Part shown: in pieces, positions 31,683 through 64,000 of the stretch
Position numbering within the stretch: the stretch's first letter is position 1
Layout of the letters: the number at the start of each line of letters is the position of its first letter
NCBI RefSeq assembly: GCF_000026545.1
Contig: NC_011601.1
DNA from: Escherichia coli O127:H6 str. E2348/69
GTDB lineage: Bacteria; Pseudomonadota; Gammaproteobacteria; Enterobacterales; Enterobacteriaceae
Strand: one strand, 5' to 3'
DNA length: 64,000 bases
Notes under the pieces: generated by a model
What the model saw: only the letters and a program-made list of their open reading frames with translations
The model's database searches: none
Told to the model about the DNA's origin: nothing
Position numbers and translations under genes: made by a program

Positions 31683-31806
31683 GACAATCTGTGTGGGCAC
31701 TCGAAGATACGGATTCTTAACGTCGCAAGACGAAAAATGAATACCAAGTCTCAGGAGTGAACACGTAATTCATTACGAAGTTTAATTCTTTGAGCATCAA
31801 ACTTTT

Positions 31807-56236: not shown

Positions 56237-56254
56237 TTTCGTTTTTTAGTCATA

Positions 56255-56286
56255 AAAAACCTGCCAGCGATGGCAGGTTTTTTTTG
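56255..56286. terminator. Bidirectional rho-independent terminator between typA and the convergent DeoR-type regulator gene
   Basis: AAAAAA-CCTGCCA-GCGA-TGGCAGG-TTTTTTTT. Confidence 0.8.
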
Positions 56287-56342
56287 GCTTATGGAAAACA
56301 AAATCCGCTGAAATTCCCAGCGGATTTTCCGAAGTTTCAATT

Positions 56343-57131
56343 TCAGGATACTTCTTGCTCGGCAACCACCAGTTCAACATTCTCTTCACTTAACAACTGG
56401 CAGAAAGAATTGGGAGGTGGGGCATCAGTAAAAAAAGCCCTGACATTCCGTGCATTGCCAATTGAAACGGCAGCAGACGCGGTAAACTTCGTATGATCGG
56501 CCACTAACAATGTATTCCGCGCATGTTTAATCATCGTTCTCGCGACTAACGCTTCATTGACATCAAATTCCAGCAGGGTGCCGTCATGTTCAATGGCACC
56601 TATACTGGTGATTAAATAATCTGCGCGGAAGCCTTCAATAAAATCCACGGCTCCTGGGCCGATAATCCCACCGTTATGAGCGCGTAAAGTGCCTCCCGGC
56701 ACCATCACTTCAATATCCTGATTCTTATAAAGAATCTGTGCCACACGCAGGCTATTAGTGATAATGCGTAAATCACGCCGGTTGAGTAATGCCCTGGCAA
56801 CGGCTTCTACGGTTGTACCGATGGTGATAAAGACGGTACAGCGTTCGGGAAGGTAATCGGCGACTGCCTCAGCGATCGCCCGTTTCTCGGCGGTGAGCGA
56901 AAGTTCCCGTTGCTCAAAAGCGGTATTCATGACGCTGGAGACGCGCCCGGCCCCTCCATGATGACGGGTGATCAAGCCCTGCTCACTGAGTTTTCGGATA
57001 TCCCGGCGCACGGTTTGCGTTGAAACATCCAGCAGTTGTGCCAGTTCTTCAATATTCATATAACCGCGTTCTGCGATTAGATGAACGAGTTGGTCATGGC
57101 GTGGATTACCTGTCACTGCGATGATACTCAT
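56343..57131 (-). CDS. DeoR-family transcriptional regulator, YihW (CsqR)-like
   Basis: 262-aa ORF; N-terminal DeoR HTH (MNIEELAQLLDVSTQTVRRDIRKL) plus sugar-phosphate-binding domain; my recalled K-12 CsqR sequence aligns closely. Confidence 0.8.
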   Translation of the reverse strand: MSIIAVTGNPRHDQLVHLIAERGYMNIEELAQLLDVSTQTVRRDIRKLSEQGLITRHHGGAGRVSSVMNTAFEQRELSLTAEKRAIAEAVADYLPERCTVFITIGTTVEAVARALLNRRDLRIITNSLRVAQILYKNQDIEVMVPGGTLRAHNGGIIGPGAVDFIEGFRADYLITSIGAIEHDGTLLEFDVNEALVARTMIKHARNTLLVADHTKFTASAAVSIGNARNVRAFFTDAPPPNSFCQLLSEENVELVVAEQEVS

Positions 57132-57170
57132 GAATACTCCCTTGCCCCTCCTCGGTAGATGTTTACCATT

Positions 57171-58067
57171 TTACGCATAAAGTGACAAAAATGATTCGGT
57201 TTGCTCACGATTAGGAATGCCGGCCCGACCGCCAGGCTGGGTACATTTCATCGCGGCAACCGCACTGGCAAAACGAATAGCCTCTTTTGTTGGCATTTTT
57301 TCTGCCAACGCTACCGCGAGTGCGCCGTGAAAAACATCGCCTGCTCCAGTGGTATCAACCACATTGACAGAAAATGCCTCCTGTTGACACAAATGACCAT
57401 CTTCAATCCACAACGATCCTTCAGAACCCAGCGTAACATACACTTTACCTGCTGTTTGTGTCGTTGCCTGGAACAAACCTTCTTCAGGTGACTGCAGGCC
57501 AGTCATGCGTTTCAGCCCTGGTGTTGAGAACACGGCGTGATCGGCAAGCGCGACAAGTGGAGAAATATCCTGCGGTGTCATATCGGCGTCTAAAAGCGTT
57601 GTCACACCCGCAAGGCGCGCTAGCGAGAATGCTTTTTCAGTACCGCTATGCCAGCGAACATCGGCCAGAATCAGATCATAACGAGAGAAATCGATCGCTT
57701 CTAACCATTCGGCATCAGTACCGAGATCAGGACTTGGATAATTAACGATAATCCGTTCGCCATGCTGATCAACGAGGATCGCTGATTGCGACGAACGGGC
57801 GTTAGGATATCGGCGGCAAAATGCGGTATTGACGCCCCAACCCTCAAGTTCTGCAAGTAAGGTATTTCCACAACTGTCATCGCCGACGCGACCGATGAAA
57901 TCAACCTCCACGCCAAGCTTTGCGATTGCAACAGCGGCTGTTGCTGCCGGGCCGCCACCAATCTCAAGATAATGATTTGCCTGATATTTCCCGCCACCCT
58001 CCGGCAGAGTGGGCAAAGAATAAATTCTGTCCTGAACTGTGATACCCACGCATGCAATTCTGGTCAT
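57171..58067 (-). CDS. PfkB-family sugar kinase, YihV (6-deoxy-6-sulfofructose kinase)-like
   Basis: Start at [11 protein letters not shown] (ATG 58067); ribokinase-family DTTGAGD motif; N-terminal extension of the six-frame ORF rejected. Confidence 0.8.
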
Positions 58068-58146
58068 ATTTGTCTTGTCCTGTTTAATTTTGTCGTCTTT
58101 GGTCAATTTAAATGACACAAATGATCAAATTAGTGATGCGTGTCGT

Positions 58147-58181
58147 GTTTTTGAACATAAATTACAAATATGCTCAAAAAC
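58147..58181. promoter_or_regulatory. Imperfect 13-bp inverted repeat GTTTTTGAACATA-N9-TATGCTCAAAAAC in the divergent kinase/reductase promoter region
   Basis: 12 of 13 positions complementary; surrounded by repeated TTTGTC motifs; candidate operator. Confidence 0.35.
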
Positions 58182-58239
58182 AGACGAAAACGAATTTTCA
58201 ATTGTCATTATTTTGTCAATGTCAGACAGGAGAGTATTC

Positions 58240-59118
58240 ATGGCAACCATTGCATTTCTCGGGCTGGGGCAGATGGGTAGCCCAATGGCTAACAATCTAT
58301 TGCAAAAAGGGCATTCATTGCAGGTATTTGATGTCAATACACAGGCCGTCGATGCGCTAGTTACGCAGGGGGCCACTGCGGCACAAACCCCAGCGGAAGC
58401 GGCAGCAAGCGCTGAATTTATCATCACTATGCTTCCCAATGGGGACATTGTTCGACAGGTGCTGTTGGGGGAAAAAGGCGTCTGTGAAACTGTTTCATCT
58501 GACGCGTTATTGATTGATATGTCGACTATTCATCCCTTACAGACCGATGCATTAATACGGGAATTACAAGAAAAAGGCATCAATATGATGGACGCCCCCG
58601 TGGGCAGAACGTCAGTGAATGCGATTGATGGCACATTGCTGATTTTAGCGGGCGGCACTGATGAGCAGATTGCGCGTGCACGCCCGATTCTCATGTGCAT
58701 GGGTAATGAGCTGGTCGAGGCTGGCGGCCCAGGAATGGGGATCCGCGTGAAGCTAATTAACAACTATATGAGCATTGCGCTTAATGCGCTGTCCTCCGAA
58801 GCCGCTGTGTTATGTGAGTCACTGGGATTAAATCTTGATGTCGCAATTAAGGTGATGAGTGGTACGGCAGCAGGGAAAGGACATTTTACGACCACCTGGC
58901 CTGGCAAAGTGCTGAAAGGCGATCTTTCTCCCGCCTTCATGGTGGACCTGGCATTGAAAGATCTGCGTATTGCAGTTGACGTCGCTCGGGAAACGGGGGC
59001 GCCGCTCAATATGGGGATTGCAGCAGAAAGTTATTACGCCGCAGCAAGTCAAGACGGCAAAGGGCGGCAGGACTGGAGCGCCCTGCTAAATCAGGTTCGC
59101 CAGCAGGCTGGTCTTTAA
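58240..59118 (+). CDS. NAD(P)-dependent beta-hydroxyacid dehydrogenase, YihU (3-sulfolactaldehyde reductase)-like
   Basis: Start at [20 protein letters not shown] (Rossmann GLGQMG; ATG 58240 with AGGAGAG Shine-Dalgarno); 3-hydroxyisobutyrate dehydrogenase family. Confidence 0.8.
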
Positions 59119-59142: not shown

Positions 59143-60030
59143 ATGTCATCCCACTTCACCCCATTTACGCTGAAAGATATCTCCCGCCCAGGTGGTGGAT
59201 TCGCCATGTTAGCTGTCGATCAGCGTGAGGCCATGCGCCTGATGTTTGCGGCAGCAGGGCAGCCAAAACCCATCGCCGACAGTGTACTCACCGATTTTAA
59301 AGTTGCCGCGACCCGAATCCTTTCTCCTTATGCTTCTGCCGTTCTGGCGGATAAACAATTTTGTCTTGAACAAATAGTCGAGCAGGGCGCTGTGGCTAAT
59401 TCTTGCGGCCTGATTGTCGCTGCCGATCTTTTTATCCCAGGTAATGGCATCCCGGTTGATAGCGTTGAAATAGATATGTCCGTCGACCCGCATAAAGCCC
59501 GTGAAATGGGGGCTAAGGCAATGAAATTACTTGTACTCTGGCGTGAAGATGAACCCGCAGAGGAACGTCTGGCAATGGTTGATAAATTTGTTCGTCGCTG
59601 CCGTAGTGCCGGGCTGGTTAGCATTATTGAACCTGTGGTGCGTCCACCTCGTCGCGGTTGGGACTTTGATCGTGAAAGCGCCATTGTTGCCGCCGCCGCA
59701 GAGCTTGGTGGAACAGAGGCTGATCTTTACAAAGCCGAGATGCCATTAGGGGGCAAAGGCGATGAAAAAACCTTACTTGCCGCCTGTCAGCAACTTAACG
59801 ATCAGATGAAGATGCCGTGGGTAATTCTTTCTTCTGGCGTTGATGCCGATATTTTTGGCCGTGCAGTAAGTATTGCCATGAAAGGTGGTGCGTCGGGCTT
59901 CCTGGCTGGACGAGCGGTTTGGGCGTCGGTTGTTGGTGCACAAGATCCACAAACCATGCTGCGCGATGTCTCCGTTCCACGCTTGCAACGGCTGGCTGAA
60001 ATTGTCGATGAAGGTATCGCGCAACGCTAA
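59143..60030 (+). CDS. Class I aldolase of the LacD/tagatose-bisphosphate family, YihT (sulfofructose-phosphate aldolase)-like
   Basis: 295-aa ORF ([15 protein letters not shown]...VWASVVG) immediately downstream of the reductase gene. Confidence 0.8.
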
Positions 60031-60062: not shown

Positions 60063-61073
60063 ATGGATAAAATTACCCAGGTTTTATTTTCAGATATTGG
60101 GAAAGTCACCACTCAATATGTTGAAGTACCACACCAGCAACTTAAACCGCACGAAGTACGGATTGCGCCCGTGTTCTACGGGATATGCGGTTCGGATCTG
60201 CATGTTCTGAAAGGCGGTCATCCGTTTGCCAAACCGCCTGTCGTCCCCGGTCATGAAATTGCAGCGCGCGTTACGGAAGTGGGCAGCGACGTTAAAAATG
60301 TACAGCCGGGCGATCATGTTGTGGTCGATCCCATCATGGCTTGCATGGAATGCCGAGCCTGCAAAGCAGGACGTTTTAATCTTTGTGAACCACCGCAGGT
60401 TGCTGGTTTTCGCGCACCGGGCTTTGCTCGCTCACAACACATTGTTCCTGCGCGTAATTGCCATGTCGCACCAGCCTCTTTACCGCTAAAAGTGTTGGCC
60501 TTTGCCGAACCGGCGGCTTGTGCTCGTCACTGCGTTAACCGAATGCCGAAAGCTTCTCTGGAAAGCGTACTGGTGATTGGTGCCGGAACGATAGGCTTAT
60601 CCATCGTGCAGGCACTGCGCATTATGGGGGCAGGTAAGATTACCGTGATTGAACCTGACGCTGCCAAACGCGCGCTGGCGTTAAAACTGGGCGCAGCAGA
60701 AGTTTGGGCACCAGGTGAGCTGGCCGCAGATGTGCGATTTACGGGGGCGATTGATGTCGTTGCAGCGCAGGCCACGCTTAACGATGCATGTACCCGTGTA
60801 TATGCCGGAGGCACCGTCGTGTGCATGGGCGTACCAAGTGGGCCGCGTGAAATACCATTACCGATGATGCAACGTTTCGAGCGTGACTTGCTCAACTCTG
60901 GCATGTACATCCCTGAAGATTTCGATGCTGTTATCGAATGGCTGGCGGATGGGCGGTTTGATACCAGTGAACTGGTTACCGATTTATTTGCCATTGAGGA
61001 TGCAGCGGCGGCATTCGAACGCGCGCAGCAAAATGACTCCATAAAGGTCATGCTGCAATTTGCGCCGGAATGA
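60063..61073 (+). CDS. Zinc-dependent medium-chain alcohol/polyol dehydrogenase (sorbitol/threonine dehydrogenase-like)
   Basis: Catalytic-zinc motifs CGSDLH and GHE, structural-zinc cysteine cluster CMECRACKAGRFNLC, NAD-binding GAGTIGL; GGAGAA Shine-Dalgarno. Confidence 0.85.
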   Translation: MDKITQVLFSDIGKVTTQYVEVPHQQLKPHEVRIAPVFYGICGSDLHVLKGGHPFAKPPVVPGHEIAARVTEVGSDVKNVQPGDHVVVDPIMACMECRACKAGRFNLCEPPQVAGFRAPGFARSQHIVPARNCHVAPASLPLKVLAFAEPAACARHCVNRMPKASLESVLVIGAGTIGLSIVQALRIMGAGKITVIEPDAAKRALALKLGAAEVWAPGELAADVRFTGAIDVVAAQATLNDACTRVYAGGTVVCMGVPSGPREIPLPMMQRFERDLLNSGMYIPEDFDAVIEWLADGRFDTSELVTDLFAIEDAAAAFERAQQNDSIKVMLQFAPE

Positions 61074-61142: not shown

Positions 61143-62576
61143 ATGAGTCAAATCACCAGTCCTGAAACTTATTCAATTAGTCGGCCACAGGACGTAATTG
61201 ATATTGTTAATAAGAACTCTGCAATCAACACCAGTATCGGCGTTATTTTTATTGCTTTGGGCGGCATATTGATTGATGCCTACCAGGCGGCGATGGTGGG
61301 GTTTGGTAATAAATACATTGCCGCTCAATTCGGCATTTCGCCGGGTCTTGCTGCAACCGTCAATGCATCAGTATTAATCGCCGCGTTAATTGGCGGTTTA
61401 TTAGCGAACCGAGTAATAAACCGCTTTGGGCAAAAGCGGGCATTTATTATTGGCATGGGGCTGTGCACCATCGGTGCTGCAGCGGTAGCTATTGCTCCCA
61501 GTATCTGGTGGGTGCTGGTGTGCCGCGTCATCATGGGCTTTGGTTTAGGCATCGACTTCCCTTTGGCAACCAATGCCGTGGCAGAGCTTCGTGGTTCAAC
61601 GTCGAAGAAAACCGGAACGTCGGTCAACCTCTGGCAAATGGCCTGGTATGTTTCGACAACCGTTGTTTATTTGGTGCTTTTGCCGCTGCTTCTGTCGGGT
61701 ATCGCTGAAGAACAATTGTGGCGTTACGGAATATTCATCGGAGCTATTTTTGCAGTCATCTTCATGATTTTGCGTTACTTCTTTATTGGTGAATCCGCAA
61801 TGTGGGCCGCACGCGTCGGGCGTTACCAGGAAGCGTGCGACATTCTGGGAAAACGTTATGGTGTTCAGGCTCGCGTTGCGGCATCGGGTACAACAGAAGC
61901 GAAATTCTCGGAAAAAGCAGAGAATAAATACAGTGGTGGATATGGCATCTTATTTAATGATCGTTACCGCAAACGCACCATTCTTGGCTGTGTCGTGGCA
62001 ACCATGCAGGCGTGGCAATATAACGCCGTAGGTGTTTATCTTCCTCTTACGTTGGCGGGAATAATAAGTGGCGGGCTTACTGGCGCGTTGACCGGTTCTG
62101 CCGTCGTGAATGCCCTTTGTGGGGTGACAGGCGGGATGATCGGCTCGTTTATTCTCCAACGACTGGGTACTCGCCGACAGTCGATGTATGGATTTGCTGT
62201 TGTGACCTTAGCATTGCTGTCGTTAGGCGCACTGGCAACGACTAATCCCTGGCTGTCTTTAGGGTTATTGGGATCAATTATTTTCTTCCATTCAGCGGGT
62301 CCTGGTGGGCTGGGCATGACCATTGCCACACTCTCTTATCCTCCCGCTATTCGCCCTACTGGGGTCGGATTTGCCCGCGCTATTATGCGCACAGGGGCAA
62401 TTGCAGGACTCATTTTCTGGCCGATGCTGTGGGGTGCGTTGAAAACTGAAGCGTTTTACTGGTTGGCAATCGTGCCATTCCTGGGATTCCTGACCTGTGT
62501 ATTGATTAATTGGGAACCACTGGGTGCAAATGTTGATGCTGAGGACGCAGAGGTTCTGGCTGAATTGAAGAAATAA
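61143..62576 (+). CDS. MFS transporter, sugar-porter-like (12 TM)
   Basis: 477-aa hydrophobic ORF with an MFS-type loop motif (GLLANRVINRFGQKRA). Confidence 0.75.
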   Translation: MSQITSPETYSISRPQDVIDIVNKNSAINTSIGVIFIALGGILIDAYQAAMVGFGNKYIAAQFGISPGLAATVNASVLIAALIGGLLANRVINRFGQKRAFIIGMGLCTIGAAAVAIAPSIWWVLVCRVIMGFGLGIDFPLATNAVAELRGSTSKKTGTSVNLWQMAWYVSTTVVYLVLLPLLLSGIAEEQLWRYGIFIGAIFAVIFMILRYFFIGESAMWAARVGRYQEACDILGKRYGVQARVAASGTTEAKFSEKAENKYSGGYGILFNDRYRKRTILGCVVATMQAWQYNAVGVYLPLTLAGIISGGLTGALTGSAVVNALCGVTGGMIGSFILQRLGTRRQSMYGFAVVTLALLSLGALATTNPWLSLGLLGSIIFFHSAGPGGLGMTIATLSYPPAIRPTGVGFARAIMRTGAIAGLIFWPMLWGALKTEAFYWLAIVPFLGFLTCVLINWEPLGANVDAEDAEVLAELKK

Positions 62577-62674: not shown

Positions 62675-64000
62675 ATGTCTGAAAAGTTACCCGCACCGCG
62701 TGAAGGGCTTTCCGGTAAAGCCATGAGACGTGTCGTTATGGGCAGTTTCGCAGGCGCGTTAATGGAATGGTATGACTTCTTTATTTTTGGCACGGCAGCA
62801 GGACTGGTATTTGCACCGCTGTTTTATCCAGACAGCGATCCTTTTATAGGTCTTATAGCTTCCTTTGCGACCTTTGGTGTCGGTTTTCTGACTCGTCCTT
62901 TAGGTGGCATCGTCTTTGGTCATTTTGGCGATAAAATAGGGCGAAAAATAACGCTTATCTGGACGTTGGCTATTGTCGGTTGCTCCACATTTTTGATTGG
63001 TTTTATTCCGACGCATCAGGAAATTGGGATCTGGGCACCGCTCATATTAATGGTGCTACGTTTAATTCAGGGCTTTGGTCTTGGTGGCGAGTACGGCGGA
63101 GCGGCATTGATGACCATAGAATCAGCGCCCGAATCCCGACGCGGATTTTTAGGTTCACTCCCGCAAACGGCTGCGTCTGTGGGTATTATGCTGGCAACCG
63201 GTATTTTTGCTCTCTGTAACCATTTTCTGACTTCGGAGCAGTTTCTCTCCTGGGGATGGCGCATTCCGTTTTGGCTTTCTGCGGTGATGTTGATCGTTGG
63301 GCTGTTTATCCGCCTGCATACCGAAGAAACGCTGGATTTTCAAAAGCAAAAAACGACGAATAATAAAGAAAAGCCCGTTCCTCCGTTGATTGAATTATTC
63401 AAAAAACATCCACGAAATATTTTATTGGCACTGGGTGCGAGGCTGGCGGAAAGTGTCTCCTCTAATATTATTAACGCCTTTGGTATTGTCTATATTTCCA
63501 GCCAATTAGCATTGTCGCGAGATATTCCCCTGACGGGTATGTTGATTGCCTCGGCGATCGGTATTTTCAGTTGTCCATTGGTTGGATGGTTATCAGATCG
63601 TATAGGTCAAAAAAGTCTGTATTTGTCGGGAGCAGGATTTTGTGTCCTGTTCGCGTTTCCTTTCTTCTTATTACTGGATAGCAAAAGTACGCTCATCATC
63701 TGGTGCAGTATGATCCTCGGCTACAACTTAGGTCCGACGATGATGTTTGCCGTGCAGCCAACACTTTTCACCCGCATGTTCGGTACCAAAGTACGATATA
63801 CCGGCCTTTCTTTTGCTTATCAATTTTCCGCGATTCTTGGCGGACTAAGCCCCCTTATCGCCTCAAGTTTGCTGGCGCTAGGGGGAGGAAAACCGTGGTA
63901 TGTCGCTCTGTTTTTATTTGCTGTCTCAGTTCTTTCCTTTGTTTGCGTCTGGCTGATTGAGCCGACCGATGAACAAGAAACCGCTTCTTACTGCTACATC
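62675..64000 (+). CDS. MFS transporter of the metabolite:H+ symporter (MHS) family, 3' end beyond window
   Basis: My own translation from ATG 62675 (AGGAGAGG Shine-Dalgarno) is open to the window end (442 codons); MHS signature GHFGDKIGRK after TM2; not in the supplied ORF track because no stop codon is reached. Confidence 0.75.
   Translation, partial: MSEKLPAPREGLSGKAMRRVVMGSFAGALMEWYDFFIFGTAAGLVFAPLFYPDSDPFIGLIASFATFGVGFLTRPLGGIVFGHFGDKIGRKITLIWTLAIVGCSTFLIGFIPTHQEIGIWAPLILMVLRLIQGFGLGGEYGGAALMTIESAPESRRGFLGSLPQTAASVGIMLATGIFALCNHFLTSEQFLSWGWRIPFWLSAVMLIVGLFIRLHTEETLDFQKQKTTNNKEKPVPPLIELFKKHPRNILLALGARLAESVSSNIINAFGIVYISSQLALSRDIPLTGMLIASAIGIFSCPLVGWLSDRIGQKSLYLSGAGFCVLFAFPFFLLLDSKSTLIIWCSMILGYNLGPTMMFAVQPTLFTRMFGTKVRYTGLSFAYQFSAILGGLSPLIASSLLALGGGKPWYVALFLFAVSVLSFVCVWLIEPTDEQETASYCYI

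Follow-up and report, generated by a model that had tools for sequence, protein, structure and literature searches.

The divergent spacer between the kinase and reductase genes of the short yih cassette of Escherichia coli E2348/69 is probably (at a rough probability of 0.7) the shared promoter-operator of the cassette, on the core of which the YihW regulator would act to shut off both transcription units. According to the favoured model YihW would bind cooperatively over a near-invariant core of about 80 bp, so that transcription leftward (kinase and regulator) and rightward (reductase, aldolase, dehydrogenase and transporters) would be silenced together. Its strongest contact would lie at 58155-58195, over the -10 region and start site of the reductase promoter, from which RNA polymerase would be excluded. 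A dyad in this part of the spacer would form the right-hand operator module, and a second, weaker copy of the module, displaced leftward by 49-50 bp, would cover the kinase promoter. The ATGNTCAAA-like half-sites of the two modules, four in all, would be oriented <- -> <- ->, and a weak CRP-like site would separate the modules. CRP would probably assist both promoters from this central position, and an inducer, acting at the C-terminal domain of the regulator, would free the repressor from the DNA. The half-site model is put forward with lower confidence than the outline.

The region is a real but ordinary repressor/promoter region that is already known at the level of the fragment. What is added here is a prediction of the operator at the level of individual bases, itself inferential, in the form of a map of the proposed positions of the repressor (58155-58195, with a further module at 58091-58129), of bases worth mutating and of the probable starts of the two promoters.

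The locus and its regulator

The window, that is the whole stretch of 64,000 nucleotides that was analysed, is part of the E. coli E2348/69 chromosome (megablast match 100%). The cassette lies between typA and yihX, where strain K-12 carries ompL-yihOPQRSTUVW. The divergent spacer is 172 bp long, with the kinase and regulator genes to its left and the reductase operon to its right; the kinase ATG reads as CAT at 58065-58067 and the reductase ATG begins at 58240. The genes and control elements of the locus are as follows.

56343-57131, minus strand: DeoR-family regulator gene (YihW-like), 71% identity to K-12 CsqR
57168-57195, minus strand: promoter/operator-like element upstream of the regulator gene, over the kinase stop and last codons (ATTTTACGCATAAAGTGACAAAAATGAT on the plus strand)
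57171-58067, minus strand: PfkB kinase gene (YihV-like), 67% identity to K-12 YihV
58068-58239, unstranded: whole divergent control region, identical in Nissle 1917 and the EMSA target in PMC12608037
58240-59118, plus strand: reductase gene (YihU-like), first gene of the rightward operon, NCBIfam sulfolactaldehyde 3-reductase equivalog
59143-60030, plus strand: YihT-like aldolase, rightward operon
60063-61073, plus strand: Zn-dependent dehydrogenase, rightward operon
61143-62576, plus strand: MFS transporter, rightward operon
From 62675, cut by the window end at 64000, plus strand: MHS-type MFS transporter (MHS/ShiA-like), rightward operon

The regulator gene lies 39 bp beyond the kinase gene on the minus strand, and an aldose-1-epimerase gene follows the second MFS gene in the same orientation as it (the rightward genes continue in L001 11844-17602). 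The initial annotation took the genes that flank the spacer to encode a kinase, a reductase and a YihW-like regulator, and these identities are borne out by comparison with K-12, to which the reductase (YihU) is 72% and the aldolase (YihT) 67% identical, and by NCBIfam, where the reductase scores 581 bits against a cut-off of 348. The regulator shares 185 of 260 residues with K-12 CsqR, and residues 1-60, which form the winged HTH (helix-turn-helix), are nearly identical, so that an operator common to the two proteins is to be expected. Its best NCBIfam match is to the GlpR/DeoR family at 256 bits, below the family cut-off of 331.

The cassette is the "short yih cassette" of Kaznadzey et al. 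2025 (PMC12608037) and is found in 1327-1365 of 5426 complete E. coli genomes (approximately a quarter), including Nissle 1917 and EPEC and ExPEC strains. At its left-hand border in E2348/69 the regulator gene directly adjoins typA and yihL-yihM-yihN are absent (window 56237-56342), and beyond typA, at about 56255-56286, there is a terminator-like sequence, AAAAAACCTGCCAGCGATGGCAGGTTTTTTTT; Nissle 1917 retains yihN upstream of the same regulator (L088 1-443).

Purified Nissle 1917 YihW and K-12 CsqR have both been found by EMSA to shift the yihU/V spacers of both cassette types, the shifted complexes being large and partly dissolved by sulfoquinovose (PMC12608037). The Nissle spacer is identical to that of the window over 58060-58250 and the two regulators are identical at 261 of 262 residues, and therefore binding of the regulator to exactly this fragment is already known from the gel shifts of 2025. 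The proposal in the initial annotation that both divergent units are controlled from the spacer, to which the adjacent YihW-type DeoR regulator binds, is accordingly upheld by published work (PMC12608037). The same study found that Nissle YihW binds more weakly than K-12 CsqR, especially at 37 C, and that the short cassette of Nissle is not induced by sulfoquinovose in vivo, and its authors advise against giving the name CsqR to the short-cassette regulator.

YihW also binds weakly in EMSA to a fragment carrying the element at 57168-57195 (PMC12608037). This element (TTTTTGTCACTTTATGCGTAAAAT on the gene strand) is invariant in about 50 species, even at synonymous positions in the last codons of the kinase gene, and is homologous to the promoter region of K-12 yihW, with its transcription start at -27/-28 (PMC5816610). 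It is evidently, to judge from its conservation and homology, a promoter/operator that serves the regulator gene itself and lies within coding sequence.

The conserved core of the spacer

The kinase was used to scan one genome per species, and this yielded 76 loci. A dehydrogenase-containing cassette was present at 10 of them (Escherichia sp., four Citrobacter, Mixta, Trabulsiella, Phytobacter, Enterobacter sp. 10-1 and Erwinia typographi), about 55 had the K-12-type arrangement and three were distant Vibrio-type relatives. After removal of near-duplicates, 11 short-type and 39 long-type spacers were aligned collinearly. In this set of 50 the part of the spacer at approximately 58104-58186 is more conserved than the flanking coding sequence, and the two cassette types share a collinear core, TTTTT..CATAAATTACAAATAyGmTCAAAAACAGAC, of which the stretch from CATAAATT onwards is almost invariant from Escherichia to Yersinia, Serratia, Rahnella, Pantoea and Pectobacterium. 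The near-invariant core as a whole spans about 80 bp (roughly 58098-58195) and the ends of the spacer are variable except for two ribosome-binding sites. A blastn search in "distant" mode failed to connect the spacer of the window with those of K-12 type and gave one weak coding match only. Within E. coli the spacer is almost invariant; an O103 strain, ML775 (L083), has T58152C in the left-arm T-tract of the dyad together with C58173A in the right arm (ATGCTC to ATGATC), and two other E. coli strains have one T missing from the run at 58208-58211. The elements of the core are listed here.

58146-58159, unstranded: left dyad arm, containing half-site H3 (dyad search and repeat finder)
58160-58168, unstranded: the "N9 spacer" of the dyad, AATTACAAA, identical in 45 of 50 orthologous spacers
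58169-58182, plus strand: right dyad arm, with half-site H4, a predicted -10 hexamer TATGCT (58169-58174) and a predicted start site at 58179/58180 (K-12 alignment)
58155-58195, unstranded: stretch homologous to the K-12 CsqR/YihW in-vivo ChIP-exo footprint (alignment through K-12 spacer positions 81-121)
58091-58129, plus strand: module M1, TGTCGTCTTTGGTCAATTTAAATGACACAAATGATCAAA, over the predicted kinase -10 and start site (direct self-alignment)
58141-58178, plus strand: module M2, TGTCGTGTTTTTGAACATAAATTACAAATATGCTCAAA, containing the dyad (direct self-alignment)
58098-58106, minus strand: putative half-site H1, in M1, two mismatches to ATGNTCAAA
58121-58129: putative half-site H2, ATGATCAAA, in M1, exact ATGNTCAAA
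58150-58158, minus strand: putative half-site H3, ATGTTCAAA, in M2, exact ATGNTCAAA
58170-58178: putative half-site H4, ATGCTCAAA, in M2, exact ATGNTCAAA

The dyad described in the initial annotation, GTTTTTGAACATA (58147-58159) and TATGCTCAAAAAC (58169-58181), with 12 of 13 positions complementary and 9 bp between the arms, is present as described, and a repeat finder lengthens the arms to 14 nt with 13 of 14 (93%) complementary. A 13-nt dyad with at least 12 of 13 pairs and a gap of 0-20 bp arose in 1.3% of 2000 dinucleotide shuffles of the spacer. Its standing as an operator is mixed. The right arm is nearly invariant in the 50 orthologous spacers, but conservation of the left arm is limited to GTTTTT and CATA, and the inner triplet is GAA, AAT, CAT, CGT, AGT, AAC, AGG or AGC in short-cassette orthologues, with no change in its partner. 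Both cassette types retain pairs 2-6 and 12-13; pairs 7-9 are not retained in the short group, nor are pairs 9 and 11 in the long group, and no compensatory changes between the arms were found in the aligned orthologues. Outside Escherichia complementarity falls to about 10 of 13, and long-cassette spacers keep TTTTTGA...TCAAAAA instead. Since so little of the left arm is conserved, the symmetry appears on comparison of the orthologues to be real but degenerate, with the 12/13 match specific to Escherichia. Conservation is higher in the 9 bp gap than in the left arm, and the identity of the gap in 45 of the 50 spacers indicates that this 9-mer is a specific invariant element of the core and not a spacer, which rules out a simple model of two arms separated by arbitrary sequence.

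The in-vivo data from K-12 bear directly on this part of the spacer. By far the strongest YihW peak in ChIP-exo (S/N 168) lies at NC_000913.2 4071641-4071681 (Gao et al. 2021, PMC8464067 supplement). With an assumed offset of 1977 bp between the.2 and.3 versions of NC_000913, which has an uncertainty of about 2 bp and fits Kaznadzey's placing of 4071737 at -25/-27 from the yihV ATG, the interval corresponds to K-12 spacer positions 81-121, CGATAAATTACAAATACGATCAAAAACAGACAAGCAAAGCA, and aligns to window positions 58155-58195, again to within about 2 bp. Most bases between 58156 and 58186 are identical to the K-12 spacer. The aligned stretch holds the invariant 9-mer, the entire right arm and about 14 further bases, with just five bases of the left arm, and it centres on the right arm, with a rightward displacement of about 11 bp from the centre of the dyad. 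Given this displacement and the small share of the left arm, the primary in-vivo contact may be the right arm together with CAGAC(G/A)AAA rather than the dyad, and a model of two half-sites leaves the invariant 9 bp between them unexplained. The papers that were examined give no nucleotide-level operator for YihW/CsqR.

A larger repeat structure, overlooked in the initial annotation along with the best-conserved TGTC of the spacer (58141), was revealed when the spacer was aligned directly with itself. The best such alignment is a 39-bp module at an offset of 49-50 bp (58091-58129 against 58141-58178), with a score of 26 that was reached in none of 60 shuffles (mean 17.6, maximum 25). Direct-repeat modules are also present in Citrobacter (L004) and Phytobacter (L009) and recur when the profile of the short-cassette alignment is compared with itself. 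Each module consists of an inverted pair of ATGNTCAAA-like half-sites. Exact copies of this motif number three in the 172 bp, against 0.07 expected from spacer shuffles, and nine in the 64-kb window, three of which are those of the spacer; the pattern was defined post hoc and such figures overstate its significance. H2 is exact in 10 of 11 short-cassette orthologues and H4 in nine of 11, with at most one mismatch to H4 in 32 of 39 long-cassette spacers, and H3 is found with no more than one mismatch in four of 11 short-cassette and 31 of 39 long-cassette spacers. With up to one mismatch allowed, half-sites spaced at 22-23, 28-29 and 20 bp recur in Citrobacter, Yersinia and long-cassette spacers. 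A further ATGNTCAAA pair at 31789/31818 was set aside as unrelated because it lies at the 5' end of 16S rRNA and immediately upstream of it. An IHF-type reading of GATCAA...TTR showed no fit on inspection.

Repeats, promoters and alternative readings

The spacer was also described in the initial annotation as containing at least five TTTGTC/TTGTC repeats, and this count is confirmed, with enrichment over shuffled sequence. TTGTC starts at 58070, 58075, 58090, 58202 and 58213 (five copies, 0.73 expected, p about 0.0005), TTTGTC occurs three times (58069, 58089 and 58212; 0.31 expected) and TGTC seven times (1.66 expected), a number reached in no shuffle. The copies fall largely into two groups.

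58069-58081, minus strand: TTTGTC/TTGTC pair between the kinase Shine-Dalgarno sequence (AGGA, complement of 58078-58081) and start codon
58202-58224, plus strand: TTGTCATTATTTTGTCAATGTCA cluster in the reductase mRNA leader at about +23 to +45, with the TTGTC copies 58202 and 58213

The further suggestion that the array is a DeoR-type operator is weakly supported, as the copies sit in the leaders and are kept, in the order of their positions, in 55%, 27%, 55%, 18% and 45% of short-cassette orthologues. No long-cassette orthologue keeps the copies at 58070 and 58075, and in this group TGTC at the positions of the TTGTC copies is kept in 0-8%. The copy at 58090 lies in the kinase leader and its TGTC is kept in 82% of short-cassette orthologues. 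The best-conserved TGTC, at 58141-58144, lies inside the CRP-like site and is kept in 73% of short-cassette and 95% of long-cassette orthologues. Neither leader folds unusually as RNA (z = 0.30 for the reductase leader and 1.03 for the kinase leader), which argues that the repeats are not an RNA element; a search of Rfam gave a sub-threshold match to a eukaryotic snoRNA that was dismissed as chance. Most of the repeats look incidental, and those near the two start codons are not core elements of the operator.

It is conceivable, although judged unlikely, that the true YihW element is nevertheless a short (T)GACA/TGTC(A) sequence in direct repeats about 10-11 bp apart, with the dyad symmetry being secondary. 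TGTC and GACA together occur nine times in the spacer against 2.5 expected, and the TGTC at 58141 is the best conserved. Long-cassette spacers have a conserved TGACA-N5-TGACA at the equivalent place in the leader, on the other strand, where it adjoins the reductase ribosome-binding site inside an otherwise variable stretch, and AAAAAswGACA occurs four times in the long-cassette profile. A distant Vibrio-type locus (L065) has three GACA units spaced by 10 bp (GGACATAAAACGACAAAATGTGACA), and GTCAC occurs in the invariant element that precedes the regulator gene. However, the five TTGTC copies are poorly kept even among short-cassette orthologues and two of them lie between the kinase ribosome-binding site and the start codon, whilst in K-12 the ChIP-exo interval (81-121) stops short of the TGACA pair (131-146). 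A histogram of GAC-GAC spacings does peak at 10 bp, but the peak is inflated by sequence relatedness and is of qualitative use only. The (T)GACA unit may contribute to recognition by YihW.

The promoters were placed by homology to K-12 starts alone. In K-12 the yihV starts are at -25/-27 with a TAAAAT -10 sequence, and those of yihU are at -15, -25, -35, -62/-63 and -82/-92 (Kaznadzey 2018, PMC5816610). By alignment the yihV start corresponds to 58099-58101, with a -10 region at about 58105-58112, and the yihU start at -62/-63 corresponds to 58179/58180, with the K-12 TACGAT hexamer aligned to TATGCT at 58169-58174.

58099-58112, minus strand: predicted kinase promoter, start at about 58099-58101 and -10 at 58105-58112 (alignment to the K-12 yihV start)
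58132-58147, unstranded: weak CRP-like site AGTGA-N6-TCGTG, centre 58139.5 (mismatch count against TGTGA-N6-TCACA)

The right arm of the dyad would thus supply the reductase promoter with both its -10 hexamer and its start site, a classic position for a repressor. No consensus-grade sigma-70 promoter (at least 9/12 matches to TTGACA-N16-18-TATAAT) was found in a scan of 57950-58350, and a scan of the spacer region for sigma-70 promoters and terminators found nothing. The missing strong consensus fits with promoters that depend on an activator. The CRP-like site has four mismatches in 10 to TGTGA-N6-TCACA here and three in 10 in 35 of 39 long-cassette spacers, and its centre is about 40 bp from both predicted start sites (class II sites lie near -41.5). 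The outer half-sites H1 and H4 each lie over an outward-facing predicted promoter, and the region is roughly two-fold symmetric about the CRP-like site.

This arrangement invites a second explanation, considered improbable, in which the symmetric core is promoter architecture, consisting of two back-to-back weak promoters with A/T tracts and a central CRP site, and YihW acts by spreading or binds elsewhere. The coincidence of the right arm with a -10 sequence and start mapped in K-12 and the placing of the CRP-like site with respect to both starts would be accounted for, and it has been reported that CRP and RNA polymerase both bind the K-12 yihU/V spacer (PMC5816610) and that CsqR makes polymeric complexes along DNA (PMC8006165). 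Against it, the strongest in-vivo ChIP-exo signal of YihW is centred on the core, the invariant 9-mer of the dyad is not something that a promoter spacer needs, the CRP-like site of the short cassette is a poor match and no promoter reaches the consensus threshold. That the dyad and repeats are chance features of an A/T-rich spacer is very improbable, for although a comparable dyad does arise in a small percentage of shuffles and the 12/13 match is not seen outside Escherichia, more than 40 species share the conserved core, there is a homologous in-vivo footprint, and TTGTC and TGTC are strongly enriched. Cooperative repression by YihW from the core is retained as the preferred reading.

The short cassette and related systems

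The gene order regulator-kinase and reductase-aldolase-dehydrogenase-MFS-MFS is syntenic in 10 species of about seven genera, with protein identities of 84-99%, as followed up to the second MFS gene where the fetched flank ends. The transporters are not homologues of YihO/YihP and the epimerase is just 27% identical to YihR. All published sulfonate-pocket residues are kept in the kinase (K27/N109/R138) and the reductase (R123/N174/S178), and the aldolase keeps R257 (the R253 equivalent) and K197/S230/S231; this retention is found although the cassette has been reported to be unresponsive to sulfoquinovose (PMC12608037). Together the synteny, the distinct transporters and epimerase and the retained pockets suggest an alternative sulfosugar route. 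It can be proposed tentatively that the short cassette is an intact pathway of this kind, with 8-9 genes and an inducer other than sulfoquinovose, and not a truncated relic. The Zn-dependent dehydrogenase, the two unrelated MFS transporters and the distant mutarotase would stand in for the isomerase, the sulfoquinovosidase and YihO/YihP, and the same operator core would respond to a compound such as sulfofructose, sulforhamnose or a sulfonated sugar alcohol from which sulfofructose is made by oxidation. Searching the literature turned up no such route. Two cassettes that differ in gene content and in their response to inducer have in common the operator core and the DNA-reading head of the regulator, and this makes the pair a handy natural case of regulon rewiring via the effector and not the operator.

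The closest known system is the CsqR-controlled yihU/yihV region of K-12 (Shimada 2019; Kaznadzey 2018, 2025; Gao 2021), which has a homologous gene pair, a near-identical HTH, a collinear core of about 80 bp and the same chromosomal locus, and the proteins and spacers of the two cassette types cross-bind in EMSA (PMC12608037). The spacers differ in that the sequence outside the core is too diverged for blastn and the inner left arm, H2 and the leader repeats are not the same. Unlike that of K-12, the short cassette is without yihS, yihQ, yihO, yihP and ompL and has a Zn-dependent dehydrogenase and other transporters. In Nissle it also differs in its lack of induction by sulfoquinovose and in the weaker binding of its regulator (PMC12608037); should E2348/69 behave likewise, derepression by sulfoquinovose would not be among the features shared with K-12.

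The closest named NCBIfam relative of the regulator is GlpR, which likewise has multiple sites over the promoter with co-regulation by CRP. The GlpR operators of the glp regulon are tandem sites at which tetramers bind cooperatively. Zhao et al. in 1994 reportedly gave the GlpR half-site as WATGTTCGWT. Half-sites H3, H4 and H2 resemble this consensus at 7-8 of 10 positions, with different spacing and orientation; they are 20-29 bp apart, in contrast to the abutting 20-bp palindrome of GlpR, and the ATG ends of H3 and H4 face inward, opposite to those of the GlpR palindrome. The resemblance is a lead only. A likeness between the recognition helices of GlpR and YihW was considered as a sign of shared specificity and rejected, being a general signature of the DeoR family. 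Among the minor ChIP-exo peaks of K-12 YihW are the glpA promoter region and ssuE (aliphatic sulfonate utilisation) (PMC8464067 supplement). The glpA peak adjoins AAAAACGAAC, which resembles a GlpR half-site, and the minor peaks at ssuE and glpA may be cross-recognition or noise.

The operator sequences of the DeoR, UlaR and AgaR switches are unrelated to that proposed here, but these regulators have the same type of N-terminal winged HTH and of sugar-phosphate-type C-terminal domain. DeoR, UlaR and AgaR combine multi-site cooperative binding or looping with CRP. The short-cassette spacer is like them in having several putative sites over about 100 bp, large cooperative complexes and two divergent units under predicted repression.
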